Shown here in pieces: positions 4,202 to 21,300 of a stretch of DNA of 37,933 nucleotides. The DNA is from PVC group bacterium (lineage in GTDB: Bacteria > Auribacterota > Erginobacteria > Erginobacterales > Erginobacteraceae), in the NCBI GenBank assembly GCA_043804695.1, contig JAZDIV010000080.1, forward strand, positions 1 to 37,933, read 5' to 3'. Numbering within the stretch: the first letter of the stretch is position 1; each line of letters opens with the position of its first letter. Below the pieces are notes generated by a model. That model saw nothing but the letters and a program-made list of their open reading frames with translations. It had not been told where the DNA came from and did no database searches. A program made the translations under genes and the position numbers.

Positions 4202-4205
4202 CTCC

Positions 4206-4584: not shown

Positions 4585-4592
4585 CTTCTCAC

Positions 4593-4711: not shown

Positions 4712-4733
4712 CGGAAAAAGGAGCGGTGCCGCA

Positions 4734-4856: not shown

Positions 4857-5106
4857 GAGGGCTAAGTTCCTGTTTCGGAATTTCAATAATCGGAAAGATC
4901 CGATTATTGAACTCCCGAAACAGGCGAAAAAGCAACCAGGAAAAAATATTTTGTTTTGTTTTGTTTTATTACACTCAGGATTTACCGTTGTTTATTGAGC
5001 AGTTACATTCAAACTAATTCTTGGGTAATCATCAGTCTGTTACAAGTTTAAAAAGGTACAATTCACTCCAATTCTTCTAAATTAGCGCCGGAGGCGCTAA
5101 TTTATA
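4857..5106 (+). repeat. Leader element A, copy 2
   Basis: 5' hairpin ctgtttcggaatttcaataatcgg/ccgattattgaactcccgaaacag, AT-rich middle, 3' GGA-triloop hairpin at 5078-5104 before the ribBA ATG. Confidence 0.9.
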
Positions 5107-5107
5107 T

Positions 5108-6307
5108 ATGACTTCCTTTGATCCCATAGATAGCCTGGTCGCCGACCTCCAGGCCGGGAAGATGGTCATCCTCACCGACGACGAGAGCCGGGAAAACGAG
5201 GGCGATTTGGTGATGGCGGCGGAGAAGATCACCCCGGAAGCGGTCAACTTCATGATCTCCCGGGGCCGGGGCCTGGTCTGCGTCCCGATGACGGCGGAGC
5301 GCCTGTCCGCGCTGGGCCTGGAGCCGATGGTGAAGAACAACCGCGACACCTTCGGTACCGCGTTTACCGTTTCGGTTGACGCCGCCCAGGGCGTCACCAC
5401 CGGCATTTCGCCGGCCGACCGGGCCCGGACGATCAGGATTCTTTCCGGCCCGGACTCCGGCCCGGGGGACATCGTCACCCCCGGACATGTCTTCCCCCTG
5501 GAAGCCCGTCCCGGCGGTGTCCTGGTCCGGGCCGGCCACACCGAGGCGGCGGTCGACCTGATGCGGCTGGGCGGCCTGATCCCGGCGGGGGTCATCTGCG
5601 AGATCATCAATGACGATGGGACCATGGCCCGTCTCTCCGAGCTGCAGAGGTTCGGGGAGGAGCATGGGCTGAAGATGGGGACGATCGCCGCCCTGATCCG
5701 GGAACGCCGCTCGCGGGAGAAACTGGTTCAGGAAACGGTGACCGCATCGCTCCCGACCGCCTATGGAGATTTTACCCTGAAAATGTTCACCTCGTCGATA
5801 GGGGACGGGGGGCCCCATCTGGCCCTGATCATGGGAGAAGTGGCGGGCAAGGAGAACGTGCTGGTCCGGGTCCACTCGAAATGCCTGACCGGCGATCTTT
5901 TCAAGTCCCGCCGCTGCGATTGCGGCGAGCAGCTTGAATTCGCTCTCAGGAAAGTGGGGGAAGAAGGAAGGGGAGTCATCCTCTACATGGATCAGGAGGG
6001 GAGAGGCATCGGCCTGGAGAGCAAGCTGGCGGCCTACGCTCTCCAGGACCGAGGTTTGGACACGGTTGAGGCCAACGAAGAGCTCGGCTTTGAGGCGGAT
6101 CTGCGGGAGTACGGCATCGGCGCCGAAATCCTCCGCCAGCTCGGACTGAGCAGTATCCGGCTGATGACCAATAACCCCCGCAAGATCATCGGCTTGAAAG
6201 GGTATGGTCTGAGCATCACCGGGATCGTTCCCGTCAAGATCCCCCCCAACAAGCATAATTACCGTTATCTCATGACGAAGAAAAATAAGATGGGGCACCA
6301 TCTCTGA
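5108..6307 (+). CDS. ribBA: Bifunctional DHBP synthase / GTP cyclohydrolase II
   Basis: DDESRENEGD, RAGHTEA, RVHSKCLTGD...RCDCGEQL, QEGRGIGL, LMTNNP. Confidence 0.97.
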   Translation: MTSFDPIDSLVADLQAGKMVILTDDESRENEGDLVMAAEKITPEAVNFMISRGRGLVCVPMTAERLSALGLEPMVKNNRDTFGTAFTVSVDAAQGVTTGISPADRARTIRILSGPDSGPGDIVTPGHVFPLEARPGGVLVRAGHTEAAVDLMRLGGLIPAGVICEIINDDGTMARLSELQRFGEEHGLKMGTIAALIRERRSREKLVQETVTASLPTAYGDFTLKMFTSSIGDGGPHLALIMGEVAGKENVLVRVHSKCLTGDLFKSRRCDCGEQLEFALRKVGEEGRGVILYMDQEGRGIGLESKLAAYALQDRGLDTVEANEELGFEADLREYGIGAEILRQLGLSSIRLMTNNPRKIIGLKGYGLSITGIVPVKIPPNKHNYRYLMTKKNKMGHHL

Positions 6308-6335
6308 AATTTCCCCTGCGGGGAAAATTTCAGAG
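6302..6335. terminator. Hairpin spanning the ribBA stop (cGCAg loop on minus strand)
   Basis: ctctgaaatttcccc-tgc-ggggaaaatttcagag; no T-tract, function uncertain. Confidence 0.4.
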
Positions 6336-6470
6336 TGAAGTTCAAAGTGTCTAAAGTTGCCCGACCCGGCAAAACTCCCCCAAGGATCACATTCAATCAA
6401 AATATAAAAACATCGAATACCGGATAAGTAACAAAGCTTTCCCCAAAAAACCTCTGATTGGAGTGAATAC

Positions 6471-6544
6471 AAGGGTCCGAGGTAGAGGCCAAAAAATCCT
6501 ATTCAATCACATTCAATCGTCTGATAAAAGCGGCGAGATAGAGG
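6471..6544 (+). repeat. Partial composite repeat B
   Basis: aagggtccgaggtagagg...ttcaatcacattcaatcgtctg...aaaagcggcgagatagagg, parallel to 13318-13399. Confidence 0.8.
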
Positions 6545-6578
6545 CTGTATTCGTCTGTTCAACCAAGGGAGGGAAGCG

Positions 6579-7043
6579 ATGAAAATTTATGAAGGCAAAC
6601 TGAACGCGGCCGGGCTGAAGTTCGGCCTCGTCATCAGCCGGTTCAACGAATTCATCACCGGAAAGCTGCTGGAAGGAGCCCTCGACGCCCTGAAAAGAAA
6701 CGGCGCCGCGGAAGATGATATCGAGGCCGCCTGGGTCCCCGGGTCCTGGGAGATTCCGGCGGCGGCCGCCCGGATGGCCCGGAGCCGCCGGTATGACGCG
6801 ATCATCTGCCTGGGAGCGGTGATTAAGGGGGCGACCGCCCACTGGCAGTACATCAGCACCCAGGTCACCCGGGGGATTGCCGCCGTCGGACAGGAAAGCT
6901 CTCTCCCCGTATCGTACGGGCTGATCACGCCCGATACCCTGGAGCAGGCGATCGAGAGAGCGGGGACCAAGGCCGGCAACAAGGGCTTTGATGCCGCGAT
7001 GGCCGCGATCGAGATGGCGAACCTGTTCAAGGAACTGGCATAG
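6579..7043 (+). CDS. ribH: 6,7-dimethyl-8-ribityllumazine synthase
   Basis: [48 protein letters not shown] upstream. Confidence 0.97.
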
Positions 7044-7095
7044 GGTTCAGGGGACAGGGTTCAGGGGACACGGTTCAGGGGACAGGGTTCAGGGG
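7042..7095. repeat. 14-bp (2x7) tandem array (agggttcaggggac)x~4
   Basis: Seen directly; begins inside the ribH stop codon. Confidence 0.9.
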
Positions 7096-7104
7096 CTGCC
7101 CGGA

Positions 7105-7151
7105 ATGGCCGCGATCAAGATGGCGAACCGTTTCAAGGAGTTAGCATAGGG
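7105..7151 (+). pseudogene. Duplicated 3' end of ribH (MAAIKMANRFKELA*)
   Basis: 41 of 47 nt identical to 6999-7045. Confidence 0.85.
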
Positions 7152-7216
7152 CAGAGAGCATAGGGCATAGCGCCCTGAGGCAGGTTACGCTATGCCCTCT
7201 GCGCTCTGCGCTATGC
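7144..7216. repeat. Inverted pair of heptamer arrays (gcatagg/gcagaga versus gctatgc/gctctgc)
   Basis: 29-nt arms with 3 mismatches around a 15-nt spacer. Confidence 0.85.
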
Positions 7217-7238
7217 GATTTCCCGGAGGAAAATTTTA

Positions 7239-7655
7239 ATGAGCAGACGACGGCAGGCGAGGGAGCTGGCGCTCCAGTTTCTTTACGGCTACGACCTGAA
7301 CCGGAAGGAGCTGACGGAGGCGTCGGCCGACTTCTGGAAGGGGAAGAATCTTCCCGCTGACGTGCGCCGGTTTGCCGGGGAACTGATCGACGGCACCGTC
7401 GCCCATCTCGATCAGATCGACCGGGTCATCGCCGATCATGCCCGGAACTGGAAGCTTTCCCGGCTCGCCCTGGTCGACAAGCAGATCTTGCGCCTGGCGC
7501 TCTACGAACTCTACTACCGCGATGACATTCCTCCCCTGGTTACCATCAACGAGGCGGTGGAGATCGCGAAGAAATTCAGCACGGACCAGTCCGGCCACTT
7601 CGTCAACGGCATTCTGGACAAGGTTCGGGAAGAAATTGAAAAGAATGAACGTTGA
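7239..7655 (+). CDS. nusB: Transcription antitermination factor NusB
   Basis: RRRQARELALQFLY, NWKLSRLALVDKQILRLA, INEAVEIAKKF, FVNGILD; follows ribH. Confidence 0.96.
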   Translation: MSRRRQARELALQFLYGYDLNRKELTEASADFWKGKNLPADVRRFAGELIDGTVAHLDQIDRVIADHARNWKLSRLALVDKQILRLALYELYYRDDIPPLVTINEAVEIAKKFSTDQSGHFVNGILDKVREEIEKNER

Positions 7656-7764
7656 ACGTCGAACGTCCAACGTTGAACGTCTAACTTCGAACGTAAGAAG
7701 CCCGGATGCCCCCCTCCTATTCAATCACATTCAATCGTCTGTTAAAAAGGGGGCGAGGTGGAGG
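7646..7764 (+). repeat. Composite repeat B overlapping the nusB stop
   Basis: (gaacgtt/gaacgtc/caacgtt)n, aagcccggatgcccccc, ttcaatcacattcaatcgtctgtt, aaaaagggggcgagg. Confidence 0.9.
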
Positions 7765-7786
7765 ATTTATTGTCTGAAGGTAGTCG

Positions 7787-8614
7787 ATGAACGCGGAAAA
7801 AACAGCCGATCTTCACATCCACACCCTGGCCTCGGATGGCGCCTATTCCGCGCGGGAAGTTCTGAACGCGGCCCGGGTGGCGGGGCTTTCCGCCATCGCC
7901 ATCACCGATCACGATTCGGTTGAAGCTCTTCCCGAAGCGATCTCTCTCGCCGAAGAGTACGGGATTGAAGTTATTCCCGGGATCGAGATCTCGGTCGAGC
8001 TGGATGCGGCTGAGATGCACCTGCTCGGGTACTTTGTCGACTATCGGGATCCCGGGTTCCGGGAGCGGCTCGCCCTGCTGCGGCGGGTCCGCGCCTGCCG
8101 GGCGGAGGCGATGCTGAAGATACTTGAAGAGATGGGGTTCCCCCTGGACATGGAGAAGCTGCTCCCCGGCCAGATGACCGGAGCGATCGGGCGACTGCAC
8201 ATCGCCCAGGCTCTTTTCCGCTCCGGTTACGTGCAAAGCCTGTCCGAAGCGTTCTCCAGGTACATCGGCAACAACGGACCAGCGTATGTGTCGAAGATGA
8301 AACTTTCCAAGGAAGACGCCCTGGCAATGATTCTCCGCGCAGGCGGGGTTCCGGTGCTGGCTCACCCGGGGCAGCTGGACAGAGATGAACTGATCCCGGA
8401 TTTGATCAAACTGGGCCTGGCCGGCCTGGAGGCGTATTACCCGTCTCACTCCCGCTTCACGACCAATCACTACCTGGAACTGGCCCGGCATTACCATATT
8501 CTGGCGACGGGCGGGTCGGATTGCCACGGGACGAACAAAGAAAAAATCCTGATCGGCACGGTCCGGGTCCCCTACCGGGTGGTGGAGGAACTGCGGGAGA
8601 GAAATAAAAGATGA
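7787..8614 (+). CDS. PHP-domain metal-dependent phosphoesterase (YciV/TrpH-like)
   Basis: DLHIHT, ITDHD, PVLAHP, TGGSDCHG metal-binding motifs. Confidence 0.92.
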   Translation: MNAEKTADLHIHTLASDGAYSAREVLNAARVAGLSAIAITDHDSVEALPEAISLAEEYGIEVIPGIEISVELDAAEMHLLGYFVDYRDPGFRERLALLRRVRACRAEAMLKILEEMGFPLDMEKLLPGQMTGAIGRLHIAQALFRSGYVQSLSEAFSRYIGNNGPAYVSKMKLSKEDALAMILRAGGVPVLAHPGQLDRDELIPDLIKLGLAGLEAYYPSHSRFTTNHYLELARHYHILATGGSDCHGTNKEKILIGTVRVPYRVVEELRERNKR

Positions 8615-8716
8615 ACATCGAACATCCAACGTCGAACTTCGAACGGAAAAAGCCCGGATGCCCCCCTCCATTCAATCACATTCAATCGTCTGTTAAAAAG
8701 GGGGCGGGGCAGGGGG
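8611..8716 (+). repeat. Composite repeat B overlapping the PHP stop and abutting the ftsY start
   Basis: Same modules as 7646-7764 with fewer heptamer units. Confidence 0.9.
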
Positions 8717-8722
8717 AGCGAG

Positions 8723-9649
8723 ATGGGGAAAAAGCTCGACCAGGGACTTGACAAAACCCGGCAGTCTTTGAAGAAAAGAATCTCGCGCTGGCTGGGCGGA
8801 AAAGGGAGGCTGCCCGCTGAGTTCTGGGAGGACTGGGAAGCCGCCCTGATCGAGGTCGATCTCGGCGTCGGGACGGCGACGGCGCTCCTCGATGCCGCCC
8901 GCGCCGCCGGCAAGAAAAACCAGACTCCGGCCGGGATCAAGGAAAAACTGGGAGAGACGCTGACCGGGATTCTGGAGAAGAACCGGAAAAAGCTTCCCGC
9001 GGGGCCGTCGCCGGCCGGGAAGCCCGTCGTGATCATGGTGGTCGGGGTGAACGGGACCGGGAAGACGACCGCCGTCGCCAAGCTGGCAGGCAGACTGGCA
9101 TCCTCCGGCGCGCGGGTCATTCTGGGAGCCTGCGATACCTTCCGGGCCGCCGCCATCGAGCAGCTGCAGATCTGGGCCGACCGGCTGCAGGTCGAGGTTA
9201 TCCGCCAGCAGTACGGCGGGGACCCGGCCGCGGTCGCCTTCGACGCCCTGCAGGCAGCCGTGTCCCGGGGCTGCGATTACCTGCTTCTCGACACGGCCGG
9301 CCGGCTTCACACCCGGGACACCCTGATGGATGAACTGGGGAAGATTTCCCGGGTATTGCGGAAGATCAAGCCTTCGGCGCCGGACGAGATATTTTTATGT
9401 CTCGACGCCACGTTCGGACAGAACGGCCTGGCCCAGGCCCGGAGCTTCGCGGAGAAATTGCCCCTGACCGGCGTGCTGCTGACCAAGCTGGACGGCACCG
9501 CCCGGGGCGGCATCGTTGTCTCCATCCAGCAGGAACTGGGTCTCCCCGTCGTCGCCCTCGGCGTCGGCGAGGACGTGGCCGATCTCGTTGAATTCGACCC
9601 GGCTGCGTTTGTCCAGGCCTTGCTCGAAGAACCGGAAGCGCTCGATTAA
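8723..9649 (+). CDS. ftsY: Signal recognition particle receptor FtsY (short, NG-only form)
   Basis: GLDKTR amphipathic start, GVNGTGKTT, DTFRAAA, DTAGR, TKLDGTARGG, GVGE. Confidence 0.96.
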   Translation: MGKKLDQGLDKTRQSLKKRISRWLGGKGRLPAEFWEDWEAALIEVDLGVGTATALLDAARAAGKKNQTPAGIKEKLGETLTGILEKNRKKLPAGPSPAGKPVVIMVVGVNGTGKTTAVAKLAGRLASSGARVILGACDTFRAAAIEQLQIWADRLQVEVIRQQYGGDPAAVAFDALQAAVSRGCDYLLLDTAGRLHTRDTLMDELGKISRVLRKIKPSAPDEIFLCLDATFGQNGLAQARSFAEKLPLTGVLLTKLDGTARGGIVVSIQQELGLPVVALGVGEDVADLVEFDPAAFVQALLEEPEALD

Positions 9650-9697
9650 GAGGATAGAGAAGACCGGAGTGCAACAATAATAATTTTATTTTATTTT

Positions 9698-9733
9698 TGT
9701 CCCTGATGTCCTTTGTGTCACTGGCGTCCCTTG
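9698..9733. repeat. 9-mer tandem array
   Basis: tgtccctga tgtcctttg tgtcactgg cgtcccttg. Confidence 0.7.
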
Positions 9734-9754
9734 TCAGGTAACAGGAAACCGTAA

Positions 9755-10993
9755 ATGGCGATGACCTCCCGGAAGCAACAAGACCGCTTGTTCATGGCCC
9801 GGGCCCTTGCTCTGGCAGTCCGCAGCGGCCGGGCGGTGCGCCCCAACCCGAGGGTGGGGGCGGTCCTGGCGCGAAACGGCCGGGTGATCGCCGCCGCCTA
9901 TCACTCCCGTTTCGGCGGGCCTCATGCCGAGGTGAAAGCGCTGCAGAAGGCCGGCCCGGCGGCCCGGGGCGCCACCCTCTATGTGACACTGGAACCCTGT
10001 TCCAGCTACGGGAAAACCGCGCCCTGCACCGACGTCGTCATCGGGGCCGGTGTTTCCCGGGTGGTCATCGGCTGCCGGGACCGGAACCCGGCCAATGCCG
10101 ATAAGGCCCCGGCGATATTCCGGAAAGCGGGGATCCGGGTCACGGTCGGCGTCCTGGAGAAAGAATGCTCGGAGCTGAACCGGGATTTTTTCACCTGGGT
10201 GGTGCGGGGGAAGCCCTACACGGTCCTGAAACTGGCCCTTTCCCTGGACGGAAAGATAGCGACCCGTACCGGGCAGTCCCGCTGGATCGGCTCGGCCGGG
10301 AGCAGGAGATGCGCCCATTTCCTGAGGAGCCGGTCCGACGCGGTCCTGGTCGGGATCACCACGGTCCTGGCCGACAACCCCCGGCTGACCGTTCGGATGG
10401 GCTATCGCAATCCCGGTCTGAAAAGGGTGGTCCTTGACAGCCGGGGGAGAATCCCGCTCTCTTCCCGGCTGGTCCGGAGGCGGGATCCGGGAAACACCAT
10501 CCTGGCCGCCACTTCCCGGGCCCCGGCTGCCCGGCTGAGGAAGCTTGCCCGAAGAGGGGTTTCCCTGCTTCAGCTCCCGGTCCGTTCCGGCCGGGTCGAT
10601 TTGAAATCACTCTTCCGGCAATTGGCCGGAGCGGGAGTGATGAGGCTGCTGGTGGAAGGGGGGGGAGAGACGGCCGCTTCCGTTCTGGAGGCCGGATTGG
10701 TTGACGAGGTCCATCTTTTCATCGCTCCGGTGATTGTCGGAGGGAGATCGGCCGTCCCCGCGGTGGGCGGTCGGGGGGTTAAAAGTATAAAAGACGCCTT
10801 TCGTTTGACTGGTCTGGTCGTGGAACGCGTGGGCGAGGATATCCATCTGCATGGCTTCATCAAGAACCGTAAAATTATTTGCCCGTGCCCCGATAAACCC
10901 CGATTAAAACTTCGGGGCGGAGGCGGGGTAGACTGTGCGAGGGCTAAGTCCCTGATTCGGAATTTCAATAACCGGATAAAATCCGGTTATTGA
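9755..10993 (+). CDS. ribD: Riboflavin biosynthesis deaminase/reductase RibD (C-terminus runs into repeats)
   Basis: PNPRVGA, HAE, TLEPC...PC, SLDGKIA, DNPRLT, LLVEGGG. Confidence 0.96.
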   Translation: MAMTSRKQQDRLFMARALALAVRSGRAVRPNPRVGAVLARNGRVIAAAYHSRFGGPHAEVKALQKAGPAARGATLYVTLEPCSSYGKTAPCTDVVIGAGVSRVVIGCRDRNPANADKAPAIFRKAGIRVTVGVLEKECSELNRDFFTWVVRGKPYTVLKLALSLDGKIATRTGQSRWIGSAGSRRCAHFLRSRSDAVLVGITTVLADNPRLTVRMGYRNPGLKRVVLDSRGRIPLSSRLVRRRDPGNTILAATSRAPAARLRKLARRGVSLLQLPVRSGRVDLKSLFRQLAGAGVMRLLVEGGGETAASVLEAGLVDEVHLFIAPVIVGGRSAVPAVGGRGVKSIKDAFRLTGLVVERVGEDIHLHGFIKNRKIICPCPDKPRLKLRGGGGVDCARAKSLIRNFNNRIKSGY

Positions 10994-11174
10994 AATTCCG
11001 AAACAGACGAAAAAGCAACCAGAATAAAATAATCAGGTTTTGTCTTATGATACCAAGGGCTTACCGTTACGGATTGAGCGGTTAGACTCGAACTAATTTT
11101 CGGATCGCTATCAATCTGTTTTATATTTATAAAGAGAAAATTCACTAAATTAGCGCCGGAGGCGCTAATTTATA
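10939..11174 (+). repeat. Leader element A, copy 3 (diverged)
   Basis: Same two hairpins as copy 2, with a compensatory T-A to C-G pair; GGA hairpin at 11146-11172 before the ribE ATG. Confidence 0.88.
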
Positions 11175-11807
11175 ATGTTTACCGGAATCATTCAGGAACT
11201 GGGGACCGTCATCCGCCGGGGGGACGGGTCCCTGACGATCGACGCCGGGCGCCTCTCCCGGGAGTGCCGCCCGGGCGACAGCATCGCGGTCAGCGGCGTC
11301 TGCCTGACGGTGGTCCGGGCGGACCCCCCGCAGTTAACCATGGATCTTCTCCTCGAAACCCGGGAGCGTTCTAACCTGGGCGTTCTGCAGCCGGGTGACG
11401 CGGTCAACCTGGAGCCGGTCCTGAAAGCGAGCGGCAGCCTGGGCGGCCACTTCGTCACCGGCCACATCGACGGCCAGGGCGAGCTGGTGTTCGGACGGAA
11501 CGCCGGGCGGGACCGGGTGCTGAAAGTCGCCCTTCCCTCCGGGCTGGAGAAATACGTGGTGGAGAAGGGATCGATCGCTCTCGAGGGGGTGAGCCTGACG
11601 GTGGCGGACATCGCCGGGAACACCGTCTCGGTTCACGTCATACCCTACACGCTTTCCCACACCAACCTGGGGGGAAAAACGGCCGGCGCCCGCTTGAACG
11701 TGGAGACCGACCTTTTGGGAAAGTACGTTATCCGTTATCTGGAGAAGAAAGACGTTCAAAGCCGTTCAATAGATAAAGCATTTCTGGAAGAAACGGGGTT
11801 TATATAA
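11175..11807 (+). CDS. ribE: Riboflavin synthase (alpha chain)
   Basis: MFTGII start, GDSIAVSGVCLTV, GGHFVTGHIDG, KGSIALEGVSLTV. Confidence 0.96.
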   Translation: MFTGIIQELGTVIRRGDGSLTIDAGRLSRECRPGDSIAVSGVCLTVVRADPPQLTMDLLLETRERSNLGVLQPGDAVNLEPVLKASGSLGGHFVTGHIDGQGELVFGRNAGRDRVLKVALPSGLEKYVVEKGSIALEGVSLTVADIAGNTVSVHVIPYTLSHTNLGGKTAGARLNVETDLLGKYVIRYLEKKDVQSRSIDKAFLEETGFI

Positions 11808-11838
11808 AAGGTTTTCTTCTACTTCACTTTTATGGCTC

Positions 11839-12045
11839 GACCTTGCTCGAAAAGCTCGTAAGTTCTCAAATCCTAATGTCTTCACCCAAAGGCTGATCCG
11901 CCTCTGGCGGAAAATACTAAATCCTAAACAATGGGGCTAAAACCGGCGATATTTTGAGCATTTGGTCATTTGGATTTAGGATTTATTTAGGATTTCGATA
12001 TTAGAATTTAGGATTTCCTGCTCGAAAACTTTTTCGAGCAGGGTC
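11839..12045. mobile_element. MITE-like element with 15-bp TIRs enclosing inverted heptamer arrays and a nested palindrome
   Basis: gaccttgctcgaaaa ... ttttcgagcagggtc (1 mismatch); internal aaatcct/aggattt arrays; no clear TSD. Confidence 0.7.
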
Positions 12046-12092
12046 TATCTCAATTGATGCAGAACGCCGGTAAAGAAGCGTTAGGGCCACCA

Positions 12093-12127
12093 CATTAGTA
12101 ATTGGTCATTGGACATTGGTCATCTGG
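12093..12127. repeat. Heptamer array (cattggt)
   Basis: cattagt aattggt cattgga cattggt catctgg. Confidence 0.7.
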
Positions 12128-12790
12128 AATTCAATAATAATTCCTGGCTGGATAAAAAAGCATCCCTTTGTCAGTTTTTTTCTCCTCTCCCTGCTGGTTC
12201 ATGCCATTGTCATTACCCTGACCGGCGGATGGGGGCGGTTGACCGGCGGTGGTGCCCGGGAACTGATCGAGTGTGATTACCGGGAGTTGCCGGAGTCTTT
12301 GGCGGAAGAAGATCAGGGCCTGTCCGGGCCGGTTCTCCCCGAACCTGCTCTCGAGGAGTCAGCGGAGCCGGAAGGAGAGAAGACAGAGCCTCCGCTCCCG
12401 GAAAAAGCGCCCGCCCGGCCCGCTGCCGCGGTGGTCCTGCTCCCGGACAGCAATCCGGCGGAGACCGGGAACGGGGAGTCCGCCCGCGCCCGGGCGCTGG
12501 AAGCCTATGTCGCCTATCTCCAGGATATTATCGATTTCCAGATTGAGTATCCCGAGCGGGCCTCACGGGAAGCTCGGGAAGGGGAGGTGACGGTGGTTTT
12601 CATCCTCAATCGGAAAGGAGAGCTCCTGGCCCTGGGTATTCCCCGTGACGGCGCATCGCCCTTTCATCCGTTTAACCGCGAGGCCCTGCGGGCCGTCCAG
12701 TGTGCCGCCCGGTATTTCGATTCTTTTCCGGAACCCCTTGACGATGAGGAGATAACCTTCCTCCTTCCCATTATTTTTTCCTTACATTAA
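12116..12790 (+). CDS. Energy transducer TonB family protein (start uncertain)
   Basis: TM helix with SLLVH, Pro/Glu linker, TonB_C-like YPERASREAREGEVTVVFIL...EALRAV...LPIIFSL. Confidence 0.85.
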   Translation: MVIWNSIIIPGWIKKHPFVSFFLLSLLVHAIVITLTGGWGRLTGGGARELIECDYRELPESLAEEDQGLSGPVLPEPALEESAEPEGEKTEPPLPEKAPARPAAAVVLLPDSNPAETGNGESARARALEAYVAYLQDIIDFQIEYPERASREAREGEVTVVFILNRKGELLALGIPRDGASPFHPFNREALRAVQCAARYFDSFPEPLDDEEITFLLPIIFSLH

Positions 12791-12847
12791 CCCGATTTAT
12801 GCCTGCCGGTCGACAGACCGGCAGGCATAAATCGGGTTGGTTTTGAA
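12788..12847 (+). repeat. Stop-codon-anchored palindrome, copy 2, with a 26-bp palindrome at its centre
   Basis: taacccgatttat[gcctgccggtc-gaca-gaccggcaggc]ataaatcgggttggttttgaa. Confidence 0.8.
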
Positions 12848-12858
12848 AGTAAGAATCA

Positions 12859-12887
12859 TTGACATTGTCCTTATTTTCAGCTAAACA
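12859..12887 (+). promoter_or_regulatory. Putative rpsU promoter
   Basis: TTGACA-17 nt-TAAACA. Confidence 0.45.
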
Positions 12888-12955
12888 CTTTCTTGTTAGA
12901 ATAAAATTTACGGTTTTATTTTTTCGAAGAAAAAATAAAAGGGGGGTGAATTTAG

Positions 12956-13129
12956 GTGCCTAAAGTTGTGTTGAAAGCGAACGAATCGGTCGATCGGGCC
13001 TTGCGGAGACTGAAGAAGAAAATGGACAAGGAAGGGATTATCAAGCAGTTGAAGAAACACCGCCATTACGAGAAACCAAGCGACCGCCGGCGGAGGATCA
13101 AGAAAAGAACCAGGCCAGCCGGCATGTAA
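12956..13129 (+). CDS. rpsU: 30S ribosomal protein bS21 (57 aa, GTG start, not in ORF track)
   Basis: MPKVVLKANESVDRALRRLKKKMDKEGIIKQLKKHRHYEKPSDRRRRIKKRTRPAGM; ALRR.KK and YEKPS motifs; GGGGGTGA SD. Confidence 0.93.
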   Translation: MPKVVLKANESVDRALRRLKKKMDKEGIIKQLKKHRHYEKPSDRRRRIKKRTRPAGM

Positions 13130-13191
13130 ACGAATGATGAGGCAGACCCGCCCCGGGCGGAAAGTTCACCCGGCGCCGGAAGGGAAGACCA

Positions 13192-13247
13192 AGCCCGCAT
13201 TACCCGTGAACCCGACGAATGCCACGGGTAATGCGGGTCTGTTTTAT
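13192..13247 (+). terminator. Putative terminator after rpsU
   Basis: cccgcattacccgtg ... cacgggtaatgcggg (15-bp stem) then tctgttttat. Confidence 0.65.
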
Positions 13248-13283
13248 CCGGTTACGGAGAGAGACGCATCGATAAAAAAGAAA

Positions 13284-13834
13284 AACGTTCAACGTCCAAC
13301 TTCGAACATCGAACGAAAAAAAGGGGCCACGGTAGAGGCCGCTAATCTTATTCAATCACATTCAAATCGTCTGTTTTATAAAGGGGGTGAGGCGGAGAGA
13401 AAAGCGAATAACGAACCGCAGAATATCGAACACCGAATATCGAAGTAAAAGAGCTGAGACAAGGCGAACCTTCAGACTTCGCTAAAGCTACGTCAGACAG
13501 GTCGAAGTTCGATGTTCATTATTCGACATTTGGTAACACTTTAGCTCTTTGAAAGTGACGACCATCTATCTCGTTACCACGCTCCGCGTGGTAACGCTTA
13601 GTTTATCGTTCCCACGCGGAGCGTGGGAACGAGGGAATGAACGTCGAACATCCAACGTTGAACATTCAACATCGAACGAACAAAGTCCCGTCGTCTGTTA
13701 AACAAAGGGGGTGAGGCGCGGGTATTTTTGTGTCTTTTGCGCCTTTTTGCGGCTGATCAAAAAGGGTGAAGCGGGGGAAACAATCAGAGTAATCTGTGTA
13801 ATCTGTGGACTTAAAAAGGGGCCGAGGTAGGGGG
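13284..13834. repeat. Intergenic repeat cluster: five AAAAGGGG..GAGG-type motifs separating different 7/9/10-mer arrays, plus REP-like palindromes
   Basis: Motifs at 13318, 13380, 13704, 13759, 13813; arrays of gaacatc, ttcaatcaca, gaatatc, ttttgcgcc, aatctgtgt. Confidence 0.85.
13570..13633. repeat. REP doublet (REPIN-like)
   Basis: ctcgttaccacgctccgcgtggtaacg-10 nt-cgttcccacgcggagcgtgggaacgag. Confidence 0.8.
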
Positions 13835-13867
13835 AGTACCAGGGAGAATAATTAGTGGATTGTAAAT

Positions 13868-14812
13868 ATGTTCGCCATCTCAACAGTCTGGAATGCCTGG
13901 CGGCATAAAGATGCCGCATCCATGGTGGATGAGCTCACGGGCCTCGGTTTCGGGAGCCTGGAGCTGAGCTTCGGCCTGCCGCTGCAAATGGTGGAAGAGA
14001 TCGGGACGCTGGTCCGGGCCGGCACGATCTCCATCAGCAGTCTCCACAACTACTGCCCCGCCCCGCTCCTGCCGGAGGGGACGAGCTTGTCTCACGACGC
14101 GCTGCCGTTGTCGAGTCTTGATGAACGGGAGAGACGATGGGCGGTCCGCCAGACCGTCCGGGCGATCGAGATCGCTTCCTCGCTGAAGGCGCCGGCGGTT
14201 GTTCTCCATCTCGGGAAGGTCCCCATCTCGCCGCTCAGCCCGAAACTGATGGCGCTGGCCGAGAACCGGGAGACACAGACCGGACGGTATCAGCGGCTGA
14301 AGGCAAAGCTGCAGAAGAAGCGGGAGGCAAGAAAACAGCCCTATCTGGAGCAGGCCGCGACCAGCCTCCGGGAACTGGTCGGCCGGGCGGAGGAACTGGG
14401 CGTCCGGCTGGGGATCGAGAACCGCTATTATCCGGAGGAGATCCCCTCGCTGGAGGAGATCGGCCCGCTGATCGAGCGGGCCGGCTCTCCCGCGGTCGGC
14501 TATTGGCACGACCTGGGCCACGCGGCGGTGAAGGAGAACATCGGATGGGAGCCCCGGGATGAATACCTGAAGCGATACGGCAAATACCTGATCGGGATCC
14601 ACATCCACGACGTCATCCTGACCCGGGACCACAAGGCACCCCTCCAGGGGGAACTCGACTATGAAGAACTGGGGGATTTACTGAGGCAGGACGTCTTGAA
14701 GGTCCTGGAAGTTCATCCCGCGGCTACCGCGGAGGAGATCCGGAACGGCCTGGGCTGCCTGCGCCGGGTGATCCAGACTCCCCGGAACGGATCGGCCGAA
14801 TCGCTTCAATAG
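13868..14812 (+). CDS. Sugar phosphate isomerase/epimerase (AP endonuclease family 2 TIM barrel)
   Basis: LGIENR, WHDLGH, IHIHD, DHKAP..G..D, VLEVH metal-site pattern. Confidence 0.85.
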   Translation: MFAISTVWNAWRHKDAASMVDELTGLGFGSLELSFGLPLQMVEEIGTLVRAGTISISSLHNYCPAPLLPEGTSLSHDALPLSSLDERERRWAVRQTVRAIEIASSLKAPAVVLHLGKVPISPLSPKLMALAENRETQTGRYQRLKAKLQKKREARKQPYLEQAATSLRELVGRAEELGVRLGIENRYYPEEIPSLEEIGPLIERAGSPAVGYWHDLGHAAVKENIGWEPRDEYLKRYGKYLIGIHIHDVILTRDHKAPLQGELDYEELGDLLRQDVLKVLEVHPAATAEEIRNGLGCLRRVIQTPRNGSAESLQ

Positions 14813-14833
14813 ATTTTTTGCAAAGCAAAAAAT
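14813..14833. terminator. AT-rich hairpin between convergent stop codons
   Basis: attttttgc-aaa-gcaaaaaat fills the whole intergenic gap. Confidence 0.45.
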
Positions 14834-15208
14834 TTACTTGTTCGTCTGCGCTCCCGCGTAGAGACCGATCCCGACCGCGATCCCGCAGATAAGGAAGACA
14901 AGGGCGACATTGTTGATCGGGGGGTCGTAATCCCGGGGCGGCTCCCCGCCGGCGCCGAAAAGCATCCCGCTGAAATAAATCCCCGCTTTCCCCAGAACAT
15001 CCAGCCTCTCTTCAGCTTCTTCCCGGCTCAAGCCCAGCGCCGTCAGGCGTCCCGCGGCCGCCCGGGCGATGCTCCCCCGGCAGGAAGAACACCGGGGGGA
15101 TGCGGCATCCAGAAGCGCCCCGTCGATCCGCCCGGGAAGCAGCGCCAGGAAGAGGCACAGGTAGCCGGTGATGACGGGGAAGGCCGGGGTTTTCATTATG
15201 TGCGGCAT
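14834..15208 (-). CDS. Hypothetical exported/membrane protein, PA2779-family-like
   Basis: Signal-like N-terminus, RLTALGLSREEAEERL motif, then GAGG and a C-terminal hydrophobic helix. Confidence 0.6.
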   Translation of the reverse strand: MPHIMKTPAFPVITGYLCLFLALLPGRIDGALLDAASPRCSSCRGSIARAAAGRLTALGLSREEAEERLDVLGKAGIYFSGMLFGAGGEPPRDYDPPINNVALVFLICGIAVGIGLYAGAQTNK

Positions 15209-15235
15209 AGGGACGTCTCGCTGTATTGGATGGGG

Positions 15236-15264
15236 ACTATAACATTACCCCATCCTCCGTTCAA
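15236..15264 (-). promoter_or_regulatory. Putative promoter for the PA2779-like gene
   Basis: Minus strand TTGAAC-17 nt-TATAGT with extended -10 TG. Confidence 0.55.
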
Positions 15265-15366
15265 GGCTGATTCTGTCTCAACATGGGTTATTTGTTAAAG
15301 ATTTTTTTATCAATAGCCCCTGATTACCCGGAATTAAGGATGGTAAGTTTTCCGAGCAAAGTATGC

Positions 15367-18300
15367 CTATTTCCCCTCGATCCAGACCGGGATCCCGATG
15401 GTGTCGTGGCCGCCGCCCCAGGTGACGCCGGTGCTGACCGGCGGCGTGTTCCAATACATGGCCCGCTCGATGATGAGAGGGATCTTGTTCGCGAACGGTT
15501 CCGTGGTCTCTTCGACGCGGGCGGAGATGGCGTTAATCTCCCCGAGGACGTTGTTGACATACAGGGTCTGGCGGGTGTTCGGGTCGATCGTCACGTAGGT
15601 GTTGATCGGCGGATCATTTTCAAAGTAGAAGGTGATGCGGGCCCGGGCGGTCCGCGCCGGGTCGGGGTTGGCCATCAGGATGTACTCATCGAAGATGTCG
15701 GTTGCCCCTTCCGGCAGGTACCAGACCGGGGCCGGTCTCACAGCCCCGATGCTGTCGTGCCCGCCGGCCCAGGGGATTCCCCCCGCCATCCAGTACATCG
15801 CCCGCTCGCACATGATGAACACCCCGTTGGTGGACTCCACGACGGCCGAGACGTGAGCCTGATATCCGACGAAGTTCTTCACCTCCATCGTGTACCGGGA
15901 GTGGGGCCCCACCGTCTCCGCCTGCTCCAAGATGATCCCGTCCAGATTCATCAGGGTTATCTTGATCTCGGCCTCCCGGTCCGGCGAGGGATTGATGACC
16001 AAAATGTACTCGTCGAAGAGATGGGTAGCCCCTTCCGAGAGGTACCAGATGGTCGAGACCTCGGTGGTCCCGAGGGAGGCGTGCCCGTCGATCCACTTGA
16101 TCGTCTCCGGCGGTTCCCCGGGGAAGGAGTCCCAGTACATGGTGCGGTCGGCGGCGACCGGGACGCAGCCGCTGGGCGGCCACTTGGCCACGATCGCCGG
16201 GTTCGGTTGGGGGAGGGACTCCACCATGGTGGCGAGCTGGTCCTGGCTGCCGGCGACCTCGTTGGCGTGGACGGTCCAGTTGCTCTCGGAGCCGATGAAG
16301 GTCTGGGCGGTGAAGGTGTCCCCGTACTTGTTCATGAAAGTGACCCGGACGTCGGCCGCGAAGTCCTTGTCCGGGTTGACGACGTGGATGAATTCGTCGA
16401 ATATATGGGTCGCTCCTTCCGGCAGGTACCACCTGGCGGATATCGTGTTGCTGCCCACGCTGTTGTGGCCTCCCCCCCAGGTGACCCCGCCGGCGTCCCA
16501 GTACATCGAGCGGTCAACCATGATTACCCGGTCGGTCAGGTCGTAGACGAGGAGGGAGACGGAGTCGTTCTTCTCTCCCCGGGTCCCCTTGAGCATGTCG
16601 TTCAGGTAGAGGGTGTGGCGTGACTCGGGGGAGACGATATCGTTGACCCGGCGGATCGGCCCCAGTTCGTCCAGCGCGGTGATTTCGATGTAAGCGTCAT
16701 CCGTGGTCGGGTTGGTGATTGAGACGTACTCGTCGAAGTCGAACCCGTTGATCTCGGTCCCGCCCGCCGCCACGTACCAGTAGGCGTACGAAGGGGTGGG
16801 GGTGGGGGTGGGGGTGGGGGTGACCGACGGGGACGGCGTTTTGTATCCTTCCGGAGTCGGGGTCGGCTTCGGCGTCGGGGTAATCTTCGGTGTCGGGGTT
16901 ATCTTCGGCGTCGGTGTTACCGAGGGCGTCGGCGTCGGGGTCCGGGTCTGTACCGGTGTCGGCGTGGAACTGGGGGTGGTCCAGAGAGCGTCCAGGTACT
17001 GGGTCGCCGTTTCGTGGTAGGTCCAGGCGCTGAACCAGGTCTGGCCGGGTCCGGTCCCGTAGGTCCACTGGGCCGCGTACCAGCGGTACTCCGGCATCCC
17101 GTAGATCTCCCGCCAGGCGCCGGTGGACCAGCCGATGGTGTAATAGGTATCGGGAACGGGGTTATTGCTGATCCAGAGGTAGAGGAAGCTGTGGTGAATC
17201 TGGTCCCGGTAATAGAAGTCGATCCGGGTCGGCGTCGGGACCGGCGTCTTGTACCCCGCCGGCGTCGCGGTGGGCATCGGGGTGGGGGTGGCGGTTTTAT
17301 ATCCGACCGGCGTCGGCGTTCTTGTCGGCATCGGGGGAGGCCGCGTCGGCGGAGGAACGATCGGCGTCGGGGTCCCGGTCGGCGTCACCGACGGGGTCGG
17401 CGTCACCGTCGGGGTAGGTGTCACCGTCGGCGTCGGGGTCGGGGAGGGGAGGGCGAGCGCTTCGTGGGCGCCGATGTTGAAGGATTCCTGCGGGGATTTC
17501 GTGACCGGCGGACCGGGGACCAGCGCTCCTGGACAGGTCGTCTGCGGCCGGGTGACCCCGTCCATGTCGTAGCCGCCGGCATAGCGGTAAGCGCCGGCGC
17601 AGATCAGGGGCGAGGTCCAGTGGATGTGATAGTTCCCGGCCGGGGCGTTGGTGAAGAGCGGATCGAGAGAGACATTTCCGTTGATCCCGTCATAGTCGCC
17701 GTCCTCGATGTCGCAGTAATAAACCATATCGGTCTGGACGCCGAAGAGGTCGTCCCCGTTGTTCCAGAGAATGTCATTGATCAGGAGAATGCTGTCATCG
17801 ACACTGTCAATCTCGATGCCCCCCCGTCCGCCGTCACCGGTATTGGCCGCGATGGTGCAGTTGACCACGACCGGGGCGGATGAGTTCATCGCGTAAAGGG
17901 CCGCCCCATGGCCGGACGCTCCGGTCGCGGTGTTGTTCCTGATCACGCAGTTGGAGATGAACGGCGAGGAGGCGTAGCAGAAAATTCCCGCCCCCGGGCC
18001 GTTGTAGTTCGCGTTCCGGATGGTGAAGCCGTCCACCAGGGCGCTGGAGATGCCGCTGAAAAGGATCCCCCGCCCCCCGGCGGCGTCGATGATCGTATCG
18101 CCGGCATACTCTCCGAGCAGCGCCATCCCTTCCTTCATCGAGATGTCCCTCTCAGCGTAGAACCCGGCCCGGACGATGATGGAGAGCGGGCCGGTGTTGT
18201 CCGCGATCGCCGCCTTGATCGAGGTGTAGTCCGCCCACCCGTCATCGTCAACGACTACTGTCTGGGGCGACCAGGCCAGGTTGGGATCGGTCCCGAACCC

Positions 18301-21300
18301 GTATTCGAGGTAATTGTTGATCCGGTCGTTGTCCGGGTCGCCCCCGGCCCCGTTGACCAGGAAGTAGAAGCCGTCGTCGGAGGGATCGATCAAGTGGTCG
18401 CTCTCCCATCCGTCCGGTGTGCTGTCCCCGTCGGAGTCGGGGTCGAGCAGGTTGGGGATGCCGTCCCCATCCCAGTCGTAGTTCCAGGTGGTGACGGCGC
18501 CGCCCGGGAAGTCGCTGTTGTGCTGAACGTTCCAGTAGCTGACCTCGTCCCCGTCCTCCAGGCCATCCCCGTCGGTGTCGACGGCGGCGGGGTCGGTTTT
18601 GTAGTACACCGCTTCCGCGCCGTCGGAGAGAGCGTCCCAGTCGGAATCCGGGTCGAGGATATTGACGATGTGGTCGCCGTTGTCGTCGCTCTCCCAGCGG
18701 TGGGGGTTGGCGGGGTTAGCCGGCCAGTCGACGTCGTGGACGGTGTTCCAGTAGGTCACCTCGTCAGAGTCGGTGAGGCCGTCGAAGTCGGTGTCCCGGT
18801 TGAGGGGGTCGGTCAGGTAGTAGTATTCCTGATAGTTGGTGAGGCCGTCCGGCTCCTCATCAATATTGGGATTCTGCCCGGTAGCCGCGAAGTACTTCAT
18901 CTCCCACCAGTCGGGGAGGGTGTTGTAGTCCTGGTCAACATACTCGTCGGCCCCGATATCGTAATAGTAATACCCGTCGATCCCCAGCCCGGTCACCGGC
19001 GCGGAGAGGTAGTTCCAGCGGGCGTCGCCCTCGTAGTCGTAAAGCATCGCCTTCCAGCTGGTGCCGGCATTGATATTTGGGTTGGTCTGCCCATAAAAGG
19101 TGCTCAGGTGGAAGTAACGGCTGTAAGCGTGATAGAAACCGGGTTCGGCGGAGATGTTGCCGTAAAAGCCGTTATAGTCGCCGTCCTGAATATTAGAGCT
19201 GGAGACCATGTTTGCGGTGGCCCCCTGCAGGTCGTCCCCGTTATCCCAGAGGATGCAGTTGGCGATCCGGGGCGATGCTCCGGAGGCGATATAGATGCCG
19301 CCGTAGTTGTTGTAGCCGGTGTTCTGGGCGATGGTGCAGTCAATGACGAGCGGGCGGGCGGCGGAACCGGTGATATAGAGAGCCCCGCCCCGCCCCGTCC
19401 CGACGGCGGCATTGTTGTGGATCATCAGGTTGCTGAGTGTCGGGGAGGCATTGAAGAGGTAGAAGGCTCCCCCGGACCCGCTGTTGGAAGCGTTCCTGAT
19501 CTCAAAGCTGTCGATCTTGGCGGTCTGGATGTTGAAGGCGCTGAAAGCCCTTCCGGCCCCCCCGGCGTCGATGACCGGCCGCTGGTAAGGGTCGGCGCCC
19601 ATCAGGGCGATCCCGTTTCGGGTCAGCTCCAGGTTAGACTCGTAATATATCCCCGCGGTCACCAGGACGATCGCCGGGGCGTTCGTCGTCTCCTTCCAGT
19701 CAAGAGCGTCCTCGATGGTGTCCCAGGCGGCGGCCCAGGAGGAACCGTTGCCGCCCGGCGCGGCGGAAGCGTCCACGTATCGGGTTTGAGGGGAGCCGGA
19801 ATTGAGCGGGTTGGTCCCGAAATAATATTCTTCCAGGTTGTTCAGGCGGTCCCCGTCCGGGTCGCCCACGCCGCCGCTCTGGATGTTGAACTGCCCGTAA
19901 TCGGCCGGGTTCAGGCTGTAGAAGACCTCCCACCCGTCCGGGCAGCCGTCCCCGTCGGAGTCCTGGTCGAGGAGGTTGACCACGCCGTTGCCGCCGCCGT
20001 AGTTGATGTCGGCGGACCAGTTCGACCAGCTGCTGGCGTTCCAGTAATCAACTTCGGAGCCGTCGCCGAAGTTGCCCTGAAAGCCGTCGTCGTCGGTGTC
20101 CGGGTCAAGAGGATTGCAGGTGACCGAGGAATATGGGGTGTTGGTGTAAACGTAAACTTCATCCCCGTCTAATAGGCCGTCATTATCAGTATCAGGATCA
20201 AGAGGATTGGTGCTCCCCTGATAATAGGTGATTTCCTCGCCGTCGGTGAAATGGTCGAAGTCAGTGTCCGGATTATTCGGATTAGTATAGCGATCGTACT
20301 CCTCGATGTTGGTGAAGGGGTTGCCGATGATACCGTCCTGGTCGGGGTCCTGCTGGTAGCCGTATCCCAGGTGTCCGAAGAATTGATATTCCCAGTAGTC
20401 GGGGAGGAGGTCGGTGTCGGTGTCAACGTACTCGTCCGCCCCGATGTCGTAGATGGTGGGTCCGGTAACCAGGGGATCCTTCCAGCGCGATTCGCCGTCG
20501 TAATCAGTCACGGGGATTATAACGCCGTCGGTTCCGCGATCGATGCAAGGAGAATAGGCGAAGTAATTGGAGATCAGGTGGAAATCGTATATGTATTCCT
20601 CGTTACCCATGTAGGCGAGCTTGTAAAACCTGGGATTGGCGCTCAACCCGCTTTGATCGCGGGCGCTGGCTTCCGTCCAGTCGTTGAAAGTGACCCGGTC
20701 GCCGTTCCAGTAGCCGACAGAAGCGTTCCCGGTGGAATAGAGGTCATTCCAATCCGAAGCGAATCCGCTCTGACTGGCGGCATCCACGTAAACCGCATGC
20801 TCTCCTGTCCCGATACTCCAGGATATATTATTTTTAAGATCATTGTTGGGAGAGTTCAGAAGGCGCAGGCCCGCGGTGGTGTTGTCGTAAATGGTATTGT
20901 TGTAAATTTCGCAGCGCTGCGCGGTATTGAGGAGGATGCCGGCGCCCCCGTTGAGGTAATCCATCGTATTCTGGATGCGGTTGTAGTCGCCGGTGACCTC
21001 GATCCCGTCGCCGCCGTTGGCATAGCTCTGGCAGCTGTTGACCATGTCATGCTCCCCGGCGATCAGGAGCCCGCTCCCTCCCGCGCCGGTAAAATCGATC
21101 CCCTGGACGATGGTGTAATAGCTGTGGATCTCCAGGAGGTGACTGACGAAGCCGTCCCCGGTCATGGTCGGGCGCCCGTTATACCCTTCGATATGGATCG
21201 GCAGCTCCTGGGTACCGGAATGGGCGTCCGTCACCGATACGGGACTCCCGGTGACGGTGAAATCGCCCCCGGCGTCCAGATAGATTCTGTCACCCTGCTC

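Follow-up and report, generated by a model that had tools for sequence, protein, structure and literature searches.

The BIME/REP elements of enterobacteria are modular mosaics in which small non-coding blocks are combined and the internal copy number varies. Here we describe intergenic arrays built around a 23-nt purine box, R (consensus AAAAAAGGGGGCGAGGTAGGGGA), in a PVC group bacterium of the family Erginobacteraceae, phylum Auribacterota (assembly GCA_043804695.1). The window, that is the whole stretch of DNA analysed, is the 37,933-nt contig JAZDIV010000080.1 (C80), and the spacer studied is the 738 nt between rpsU (12956-13129) and a TIM-barrel gene (ATG at 13868). Units made of a short tandem-repeat module and an R box are joined head to tail in the intergenic arrays of this genome, about 65 in number, and related spacers differ by whole units or multi-unit blocks, breaking at R.

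Among the nearest described cases are the STAR elements of Staphylococcus aureus. These short G+C-rich direct repeats follow one another at 40-60-bp intervals between genes, in numbers that expand and contract locally (PMC3532100), and the R arrays share these properties. STAR locations differ between species, their function and mechanism of dispersal are unknown, and slippage together with recombination between direct repeats has been proposed to change their copy number (PMC3532100). The 14-bp STAR consensus (TNTGTTGNGGCCCN, T(G/A/T)TGTTG(G/T)GGCCC(C/A)) is unrelated to the 23-nt purine box, and STAR spacers are locus-specific, whereas R boxes are separated by about ten genome-wide tandem-repeat classes, in polar arrays that abut gene boundaries and belong to another phylum (PMC3532100). 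The R arrays are an analogue of STAR and not a member of it.

The MIRU of mycobacteria are 40-100-bp units, often in tandem, that lie in operon spacers and are absent from the same site in relatives, all of which holds for the R units too (PMC3184786, PMC12548453). The ends of MIRU suit the genes on either side, which keeps disturbance of expression small; the small open reading frame (ORF) of MIRU overlaps the neighbouring genes by 4 nt, whereas no consistent ORF runs through the units here (PMC12548453, PMC3184786). A MIRU-like ATGA overlap with the upstream stop is seen in some cases at the start of the module called E below, and the fit is otherwise made by a TGA in the first module and, at the end, a box resembling a Shine-Dalgarno (SD) sequence. 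With BOX of Streptococcus pneumoniae the arrays have in common a modular, intergenic and lineage-specific mosaic, and the recurrent composite E-x-A-R (modules E and A, a segment x and R) recalls boxA-boxB(n)-boxC (PMC3184786). Neisseria REP2 and the Borrelia upstream repeats are likewise dispersed directly upstream of genes and carry a ribosome-binding site, but they are single-copy and include a promoter and an ATG, whereas here units are stacked, a start codon is missing after many R boxes and one array in three is reversed (PMC3184786). The core of REP/BIME is palindromic and R is a non-palindromic direct repeat; the REP-like doublet of the studied spacer (13572-13630) is one module among many. 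No link of the RAYT type is apparent, PF01797, counted at family level, being present in 36 of 41 genomes.

The R box, its units and their turnover

R is about 80% purine, with G-runs on either side of a short centre. All 13 copies listed by a sequence-only reading of the window were found in their places, both by direct reading and by position weight matrix (PWM), and the outlying degenerate copies are real, each following a repeat module in the same polarity. The 13-nt core AAAGGGGNNGAGG, allowing one mismatch, matches seven times in the window against a shuffle mean of 1.88, and 0 of 100 shuffles reach seven. Genome-wide, 149 PWM matches score at least 16 and 107 at least 18, compared with 9-13 and about 3 in composition-preserving block shuffles; the matrix was trained on the genome in which it was tested, which favours the real count. 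The independent control for frequency is the exact pattern compared with its reversed form: across 79 genomes, 281 forward matches were found in the family (f1) and 0 reversed matches anywhere. R is thus far above chance, which answers a doubt raised in the sequence-only reading itself, namely that the box might be no commoner than SD-like purine tracts.

The exact 18-nt core of R occurs 16 times in this genome and 50, 92, 50, 19, 18, 8, 8 and 0 times in eight other genomes of the family, of which G004 is R-free. Outside the family, 1-2 matches were found in three of five genomes of the same order and 0 in 65 further genomes of the phylum; these counts use exact patterns, so that diverged copies are missed. 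Units of this kind number in the hundreds across three genera of a single Auribacterota family. Preferred R and junction variants are specific to each genome: among the matches listed, the YR position of R reads TA in 39 of 50 copies in G003 and CG in 26 of 32 in G007, and the junction between module C and R (C-R) reads GTGGATAAAAAAGGGG in G007 and GTGGACTGCAAAGGGG in G003. The C-R junction is present in eight of the nine family genomes, and an exact 21-mer of module A has 12 and 19 copies in two genomes of genus g1, 2 in G003 and none in the others. From these two distributions, R and the C-R unit are the core common to the family, and the other modules are younger and narrower. A phage vector for R was considered and rejected: a search of 2.9 million viral contigs gave one match, which falls within a coding sequence and has no adjoining module.

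A unit is about 55 nt long and consists of a module (two or three tandem words of 7-10 nt, the last copy altered), an A-run and R. The modules are non-coding, measure 25-40 nt and fall into about ten classes genome-wide: A (ATTCAATCAC ATTCAATCGTCTGTT), B (TTTTGCGCC TTTTTGCGGCTAAT), C (TAATCTGTG TAATCTGTGGACT), D (TCTTAGTG TCTTGGTGGTTA), E ((GAACRTC)n), G (a long CGAATAT hairpin cassette) and others. The segments between R boxes are these recurring classes and not unique cassettes. Regular expressions recognised the upstream module of 80 of the 108 R matches scoring at least 18, several of the other 28 being missed C-type modules. Module E occurs 66 times in the genome (65 intergenic), with 3-8 copies of its 7-mer. 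One R box is present in 32 of the 65 arrays, two in 25 and three in 8. Neighbours of the same class are frequent (B-B 9, C-C 8, D-D 4), mixed neighbours occur too, and the composite E-x-A-R is recurrent.

Among 117 R boxes, positions 0-2, 4, 10, 16, 17, 19 and 20 of R are informative on the class of the upstream module (p ≤0.024), and for the downstream module only position 17 (p 0.0) and, weakly, position 1 (p 0.048). Since R variation tracks the upstream module, the unit is module plus R, with R at its 3' end. A SINE-like unit with R as head, a body and an A tail is ruled out by the same co-variation. A composite junction, in which the left half of R comes from one unit and the right half from the next, is pointed to only by position 17 and by the R boxes that precede module G.

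Two observations concern the modules themselves. A 26-30-nt insert (TCGAAGAYCCTGAGTTTATCGAAGG and a relative) splits module B in five arrays, on contigs C84 (~14750), C114 (~19640) and C154 (three copies), and it splits module A, in the opposite orientation, in locus L034 (~480-510); these inserts indicate nested insertion into the modules. In genomes resembling genus g3 (spacers of L034, L036, L041 and G003), a second junction box, AAAGCCGCCAAnCCnAGGCGAAA, replaces R before C-type modules. Its counterpart in the present genome is the x segment between E and A, GAAAAAGCCCGGATGCCCCCCTCC, which can pair with the following R (fold of 8615-8726).

The sequence-only reading had described the layout as matching neither CRISPR nor integron, and the defining features of both are indeed lacking. 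As in CRISPR, spacing is regular (26 of 39 R-to-R distances are 46-63 nt), but the spacers are recurring classes and not unique, R is degenerate (PWM scores of 16-31 within one array) where CRISPR repeats are near-identical, and the 65 arrays are spread over many contigs, away from the only Cas1 match. The integron attC site is an imperfect inverted repeat that forms a hairpin, whereas R is purine-rich, has no dyad symmetry and cannot pair with itself; predicted RNA folds of eight array stretches were no better than those of shuffles (z -0.9 to +1.1). Integrons carry intI and attI at the head of the array and have ORFs as cassettes; here none of the three tyrosine recombinase matches lies near an array, and the modules do not encode proteins.

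Turnover of the units is seen most directly in relatives. The gene order from ribBA to the TIM gene is kept across the family, and the spacers are not. The spacer between nusB and the PHP-domain gene measures 13-20 nt without repeats in G005 and G002, 131 nt with one E-x-A-R here, and reaches ~400 nt in G001, a congener, and ~750 nt in G003; the order of units varies between these genomes. In the next spacer, between the PHP gene and ftsY, the composite is present once here and three times in G001, G005 has four C-R units, and G002 has no unit. For the rpsU-TIM spacer, 20 of 34 retrieved loci were examined, after removal of most loci below 45% identity, of short fragments and of a duplicate record. 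Distant outgroups (38-40% identity) account for two of the 20, and the other 18 are family-level. No R was found in 10 of these 18 (nine distinct, L022 and L032 having the same sequence), where the spacer is ~90-285 nt, and 1-4 R boxes lie upstream of the TIM gene in seven, compared with five boxes in this genome. R-bearing spacers measure ~430-815 nt in the five loci that include the rpsU end; L029 showed neither rpsU nor R.

Array differences start or end at R in all four pairwise comparisons, which bears out the expectation of the sequence-only reading that polymorphism boundaries would coincide with R. A ~210-nt super-unit with R at its end is present once in L034 and three times in L041 (the TIM genes of the two are 92% identical). 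L034 and L036 have an identical C-R, then different modules, until homology returns at the second junction box. L038 and L031 (91% identical) have only the last unit in common. Contig C22 carries a pair of paralogous arrays that match as far as the head of R, beyond which one hairpin cassette and one R make the difference. Within L041, successive copies of module C have two or three words. There is thus tandem instability at three nested scales, within modules, of whole units and of 110-210-nt super-units, as expected from slippage or unequal recombination between direct repeats. Turnover of the units outpaces the divergence of the neighbouring genes.

The rpsU-TIM spacer and the placing of arrays between genes

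From ~13280 to 13835 nearly all of the studied spacer recurs elsewhere in the genome, and its first 150 nt, with the rpsU 3' hairpin, are unique (13130-13279 has no second copy, depth 0). The order of modules in 13284-13834 is as the sequence-only reading had listed it, and the starts of the last three R boxes are 55 and 56 nt apart. The features, from rpsU to the TIM gene, are as follows.

13130-13250, + strand: unique rpsU 3' region outside the repeat mosaic, inverted repeat CCCGCATTACCCGTG ... CACGGGTAATGCGGG, then TCTGTTTT
13283-13316, + strand: module E, (GAACRTC)n 7-mers after an A-run
13317-13339, + strand: R box 1, GGCC...GGCC variant, PWM 23.6
13340-13376, + strand: module A, ATTCAATCAC / ATTCAAATCGTCTGTT (also read ATTCAATCAC/ATTCAAATCGTCTG), exact 21-mer 12 times in the genome
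13377-13399, + strand: R box 2, PWM 26.0, its first 13 bases pairing with the 16S tail at -19.5 kcal/mol
13400-13530, + strand: module G, long inverted CGAATATCGAA (CGAATAT) cassette, right arm degenerate here, left arm with nine other copies at 92-100% identity
13531-13637, + strand: REP-like block with two hairpins, GTTACCACGC-TCC-GCGTGGTAAC (13572-13596) and GTTCCCACGC-GGA-GCGTGGGAAC (13607-13630)
13638-13700, + strand: module E, then the tail of module A (CGTCTGTT)
13701-13723, + strand: R box 3, PWM 20.1
13724-13755, + strand: module B, TTTTGYGYC / TTTTGCGCC / TTTTTGCGGCTGAT
13756-13778, + strand: R box 4, degenerate, PWM 16.2
13779-13811, + strand: module C, AATCAGAG TAATCTGTG TAATCTGTGGACT, with AATCTGTGT 9-mers
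13812-13834, + strand: R box 5, the best copy, PWM 31.2, exact core match
13835-13867, + strand: truncated C-type unit AATAATTAGTGGAT, reaching the TIM gene ATG at 13868
13868-14809: TIM-barrel gene, xylose-isomerase-like, Pfam PF01261

The REP-like block has five matches of at least 104 nt, 82-96% identical, and shorter part-matches on other contigs. The rpsU inverted repeat escaped a consensus terminator scan because its loop exceeds 8 nt. A MIRU-like ORF of the unit was sought and rejected: stops occur in all three frames of 13270-13880, and no consistent ORF runs through the units. Two open frames that cross the nusB-PHP and PHP-ftsY spacers run on into the next gene.

The other copies in the window lie in the following places.

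4205-4320, - strand: antisense E-x-A-R, whose R (4205-4227) ends 3 nt from the smc stop codon
6467-6545, + strand: R, module A and a degenerate R upstream of ribH (R at 6467 and 6523, PWM 20.5 and 16.9)
7646-7765, + strand: composite E-x-A-R forming the bulk of the nusB-PHP spacer, R at 7743, the PHP ATG 21 nt past the R box
8612-8716, + strand: composite E-x-A-R filling the PHP-ftsY spacer, R at 8694, ending 6 nt before the ftsY ATG
35266-35475, - strand: antisense array with two R boxes (35266-35288, 35453-35475) and modules A and E, R abutting the stop of the gene 33627-35264
36486-36508, - strand: R box in a duplicated copy of the 35266-35475 array

In the PHP-ftsY composite, the stop TGA of the PHP gene is the first TGAAC of module E. 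Such fits recur across the genome. Between two called genes lie 59 of the 65 arrays, 37 of them co-directional sense, 12 antisense, 9 between convergent and 1 between divergent genes, and 48 of the 59 are nearer to the gene ahead of R than to the gene behind (p 1e-6). In sense arrays the median distance from the end of the last R to the called start is ~30 nt, and it is at most 16 nt in 11 of 38; these distances are partly biased by longest-ORF start calls. Antisense arrays are unaffected by that bias; their last R is 0-11 nt from the stop-codon complement in 9 of 21. In 21 of 42 cases module E starts no more than 12 nt from the stop of a co-directional upstream gene, and in seven its own TGAAC provides the stop TGA. 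The SD-like character of R, the polarity of the arrays at gene boundaries and the frequent supply of the upstream stop codon by the first module go beyond the sequence-only reading.

The last bases of the 16S gene are GGATCACCTCCTTTAAA; real starts are preceded by GGAGG or AGGAG, at -13 to -9. The predicted duplex of R with the 16S tail has a median of -11.8 kcal/mol, compared with -6.5 for real start regions. When the last R lies near the start, its tail is the sole SD-like sequence (as at ftsY here); when it lies farther away, the interval holds a truncated module and a separate SD. Start codons are missing after the internal R boxes. On the strand opposite R, module E looks like an intrinsic terminator in its predicted shape: the fold has a median of -12.8 kcal/mol, compared with -6.5 in sense and -2.3 when shuffled, and a stretch with at least 5 U in 8 nt comes after 40 of the 66 copies (in the window, for example, 13286-13315 on the - strand).

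Origin and meaning of the arrays

The reading that we favour, with moderate confidence, is that the arrays are non-coding, lineage-specific interspersed direct repeats, closest to STAR, MIRU, BOX and BIME, that are reshuffled at R by slippage and recombination, the simplest agents. R would serve as shared homology for replication slippage, unequal crossing-over, gene conversion or template switching, by which units would be added, deleted or swapped, and the same slippage would act inside modules and on the 110-210-nt super-units. The unit may be tolerated in tight junctions because its ends fit gene boundaries. At the 5' end, the leader of module E, AAAGAATGAAC, could supply the upstream stop codon; at the 3' end, R as an SD-like tract could serve the downstream start, and E on the opposite strand would provide what has the look of a hairpin and U-run terminator.

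Several points weigh against this reading. Slippage and recombination account for change within arrays, but not for the colonisation of spacers that are empty in sister genera, a step that would call for some process of insertion, nor do they explain the tight seat of the R end against stop codons. The near invariance of R across three genera, the abutting of arrays on gene boundaries, the excess of sense over antisense arrays (37 to 12, p 5e-4) and the scarcity of arrays between divergent genes (1 of 59, for an expectation of 17% from length; p 4e-4) would be just as compatible with host function or with targeted insertion. The fit of R to the ribosome is also less specific than it looks: shuffled R pairs with the 16S tail at -10.8 kcal/mol, nearly as strongly as R itself, so that the SD likeness would be mostly base composition, and the R consensus has C at a site where T would pair with the 16S tail. 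The break points rest on four pairwise comparisons, made between loci whose neighbouring genes are 88-94% identical or between paralogues, and at such distances no junction is defined to the base; no strain closer than ~94% for the rpsU-TIM locus was found among the retrieved relatives. Finally, the ORF caller behind the gene boundaries is crude, in that it recovered 11 of 12 Pfam-supported genes lying wholly inside the window and missed the 57-codon rpsU.

It is possible, though on balance unlikely, that a dedicated recombinase or transposase, specific to the family and encoded elsewhere, uses R as its attachment site and inserts module-plus-R micro-cassettes beside existing R boxes and at gene boundaries. 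The head-to-tail units with a conserved box at the 3' end, like attC in integron cassettes, would agree with this, as would the break points at R, the R ends that abut gene boundaries, the conservation of R across genera while the module repertoire shifts (module A narrow, C-R in eight of nine) and the colonisation here of spacers that are empty in sister genomes. The search for an enzyme speaks against it. Pfam named no recombinase, transposase, nuclease or Cas family among 24 ORFs of the window, as the sequence-only reading had stated for its enzyme. The Y1 transposase domain PF01797 is found in 36 of 41 genomes irrespective of R, including R-free G004 and the outgroups, at family level, and RVT_1 is absent from three R-bearing genomes and so does not track R. 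Elsewhere in the genome, the single Cas1 match (C51:801-1673) and two of three tyrosine recombinase matches (C47, C32) are on array-free contigs, and the third (C48) is >27 kb from the nearest R; together with the reverse transcriptase, all these candidates are on array-free contigs or >27 kb from an array, and none is near any. Self-BLAST of the 2155 called proteins gave no multi-copy transposase, its sole large family (60 members) being a repeat-rich secreted protein. These enzyme negatives are limited by an assembly that is 88% complete and by the frequent loss of repeats and insertion sequences from metagenome assemblies. Moreover, a purine box without dyad symmetry is a poor match to a hairpin site, and the arrays occupy ~65 loci instead of one platform. 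The proposal of the sequence-only reading that R is a recombination or insertion site holds in part, for a real, non-random junction between head-to-tail units, and its dedicated enzyme or site-specific insertion found no support.

An equally doubtful alternative is that the host keeps the units as parts of its mRNAs, in sense as operon linkers or leaders with R as a standby or SD site, and in antisense as a 3' untranslated region and terminator. The sense bias in co-directional pairs, the arrays that end within 16 nt of a start, an R-16S pairing about twice as strong as that of real start regions, the stops supplied by E in seven cases and the fold and U-runs of opposite-strand E are consistent with such a role. 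Transcription of the array finds a weak hint: three metatranscriptome runs of one study, compared with 5000-15300, gave two exact contigs, 13029-13143 and 13189-13387, the second of which comes from a groundwater RNA library, spans the rpsU hairpin, E, R and A and might reflect read-through from rpsU into the array. The other RNA matches are short, 90-95% similar repeats from other organisms, and the uncovered parts are uninformative. The RNA evidence is one unstranded contig, from a library that may include DNA. Orthologous genes, moreover, do without units (in G005 and G002, and in the R-free rpsU-TIM loci), the internal R boxes have no start codons after them, and spacer composition is not conserved even where neighbouring genes are 91-94% identical.

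Quite improbable, in our estimation, is the more specific proposal that R is the recognition site of an undescribed, family-confined insertion system that places 55-nt, junction-compatible, non-coding micro-cassettes at gene boundaries. If true, it would amount to a new kind of junction-compatible mobile DNA, of which the conserved box is the only constant part, with a stop codon, a ribosome-binding box and a reverse-strand terminator built in so as to make it harmless or useful at such sites.

It is very unlikely that R is a hot spot of non-B DNA, an H-DNA mirror repeat or a two-tier G-quadruplex, that stalls replication and so leads to duplication and template switching. The purine content of R and its G-runs on both sides of a short centre are in keeping with it, and abundant bacterial triplex motifs have been linked to rearranged loci (PMC4666352). 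The quadruplex, however, is marginal (-1.4 to -4.8 kcal/mol) and absent from the minimum-energy fold of the array, and the mirror symmetry is poor, with an A-run that is strong only on the 5' side (A fraction 0.74 compared with 0.41). The arms of R, at 8-9 nt, would also be short for H-DNA. Hardly credible is the idea that the arrays are promoters, or CRISPR-like or small-RNA arrays processed at R: the regular ~55-nt spacing and an A-rich hexamer just before the G-run would suit it, but divergent spacers, which must hold promoters, are depleted of arrays, the array has no sigma-70-like site (a normal one lies upstream of rpsU), the spacers are recurring classes, array folds do not exceed shuffles, Cas1 is on an array-free contig, and Rfam at gathering thresholds found only the FMN riboswitch, a lax search of 13100-13900 adding one chance match (E 0.73).

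To return to the arrays as reshuffled direct repeats, the spacers of this organism are unusually long, and much of their DNA, also between essential genes such as rpsU, ftsY and nusB, consists of tiny stackable units. The arrays offer a natural example of non-coding repeats that invade tight operon junctions without breaking them, and a possible source of expression variation in an uncultured phylum. Like MIRU and STAR repeats, they might be useful for strain typing, and they explain some of the fragmentation of these metagenome assemblies. Should an enzyme stand behind the units, they would represent a new small-cassette insertion system.

The genome, its gene row and other repeats

The host genome comprises 2.97 Mb in 155 contigs with 57.8% G+C, and its coding fraction is ~79%, with 2155 genes by our own codon-bias ORF caller. 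The Pfam-supported gene row of the window is smc, ribBA, ribH, nusB, the PHP-domain gene, ftsY, ribD, ribE, a TonB-like gene, rpsU and the xylose-isomerase-like TIM-barrel gene. Relatives retrieved with the TIM protein include Candidatus Euphemobacter frigidus and Candidatus Erginobacter occultus, Auribacterota of Ace Lake (PMC9324843); that paper makes no mention of repeats or intergenic DNA, and none of the Auribacterota papers searched concerns repeats, to judge by title and abstract.

The window contains several further repeats and features. An FMN riboswitch (RF00050, 108 bits) lies at 4590-4714 on the + strand, ~390 nt upstream of ribBA, with repeat cassettes between riboswitch and start codon. 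A leader cassette of ~200 nt has copies at about 60-296, 4880-5107 and 10994-11174 (+ strand), and its 3' hairpin, AAATTAGCGCC-GGA-GGCGCTAATTT, is found a few bases 5' of the ATG of ribBA, ribE and one small ORF. Other spacers contain tandem repeats at 7042-7217 and 11968-12016 (AGGGTTCAGGGGAC 3.9 times, and ATTTAGG 7.6 times before the TonB-like gene), and in the ribH-nusB spacer GCATAGG and its inverse CGCTATG form a long inverted pair. Beyond the TIM gene, on the opposite strand, an ORF of 5896 codons (15367-33057, - strand) has internal 18-nt tandem repeats. A duplication of ~400 nt of repeat mosaic (35290-35700 and 36290-36700) flanks a DUF433 gene (35853-36167), the two copies differing in the number of 7-mers (3 and ~10). 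The genome (G000) also encodes 60 paralogous secreted proteins on many contigs (for example C102:488-2188), with repeats of the form GDYNGDG...GLWAVRGVTRxYFG that are at least 60% identical.

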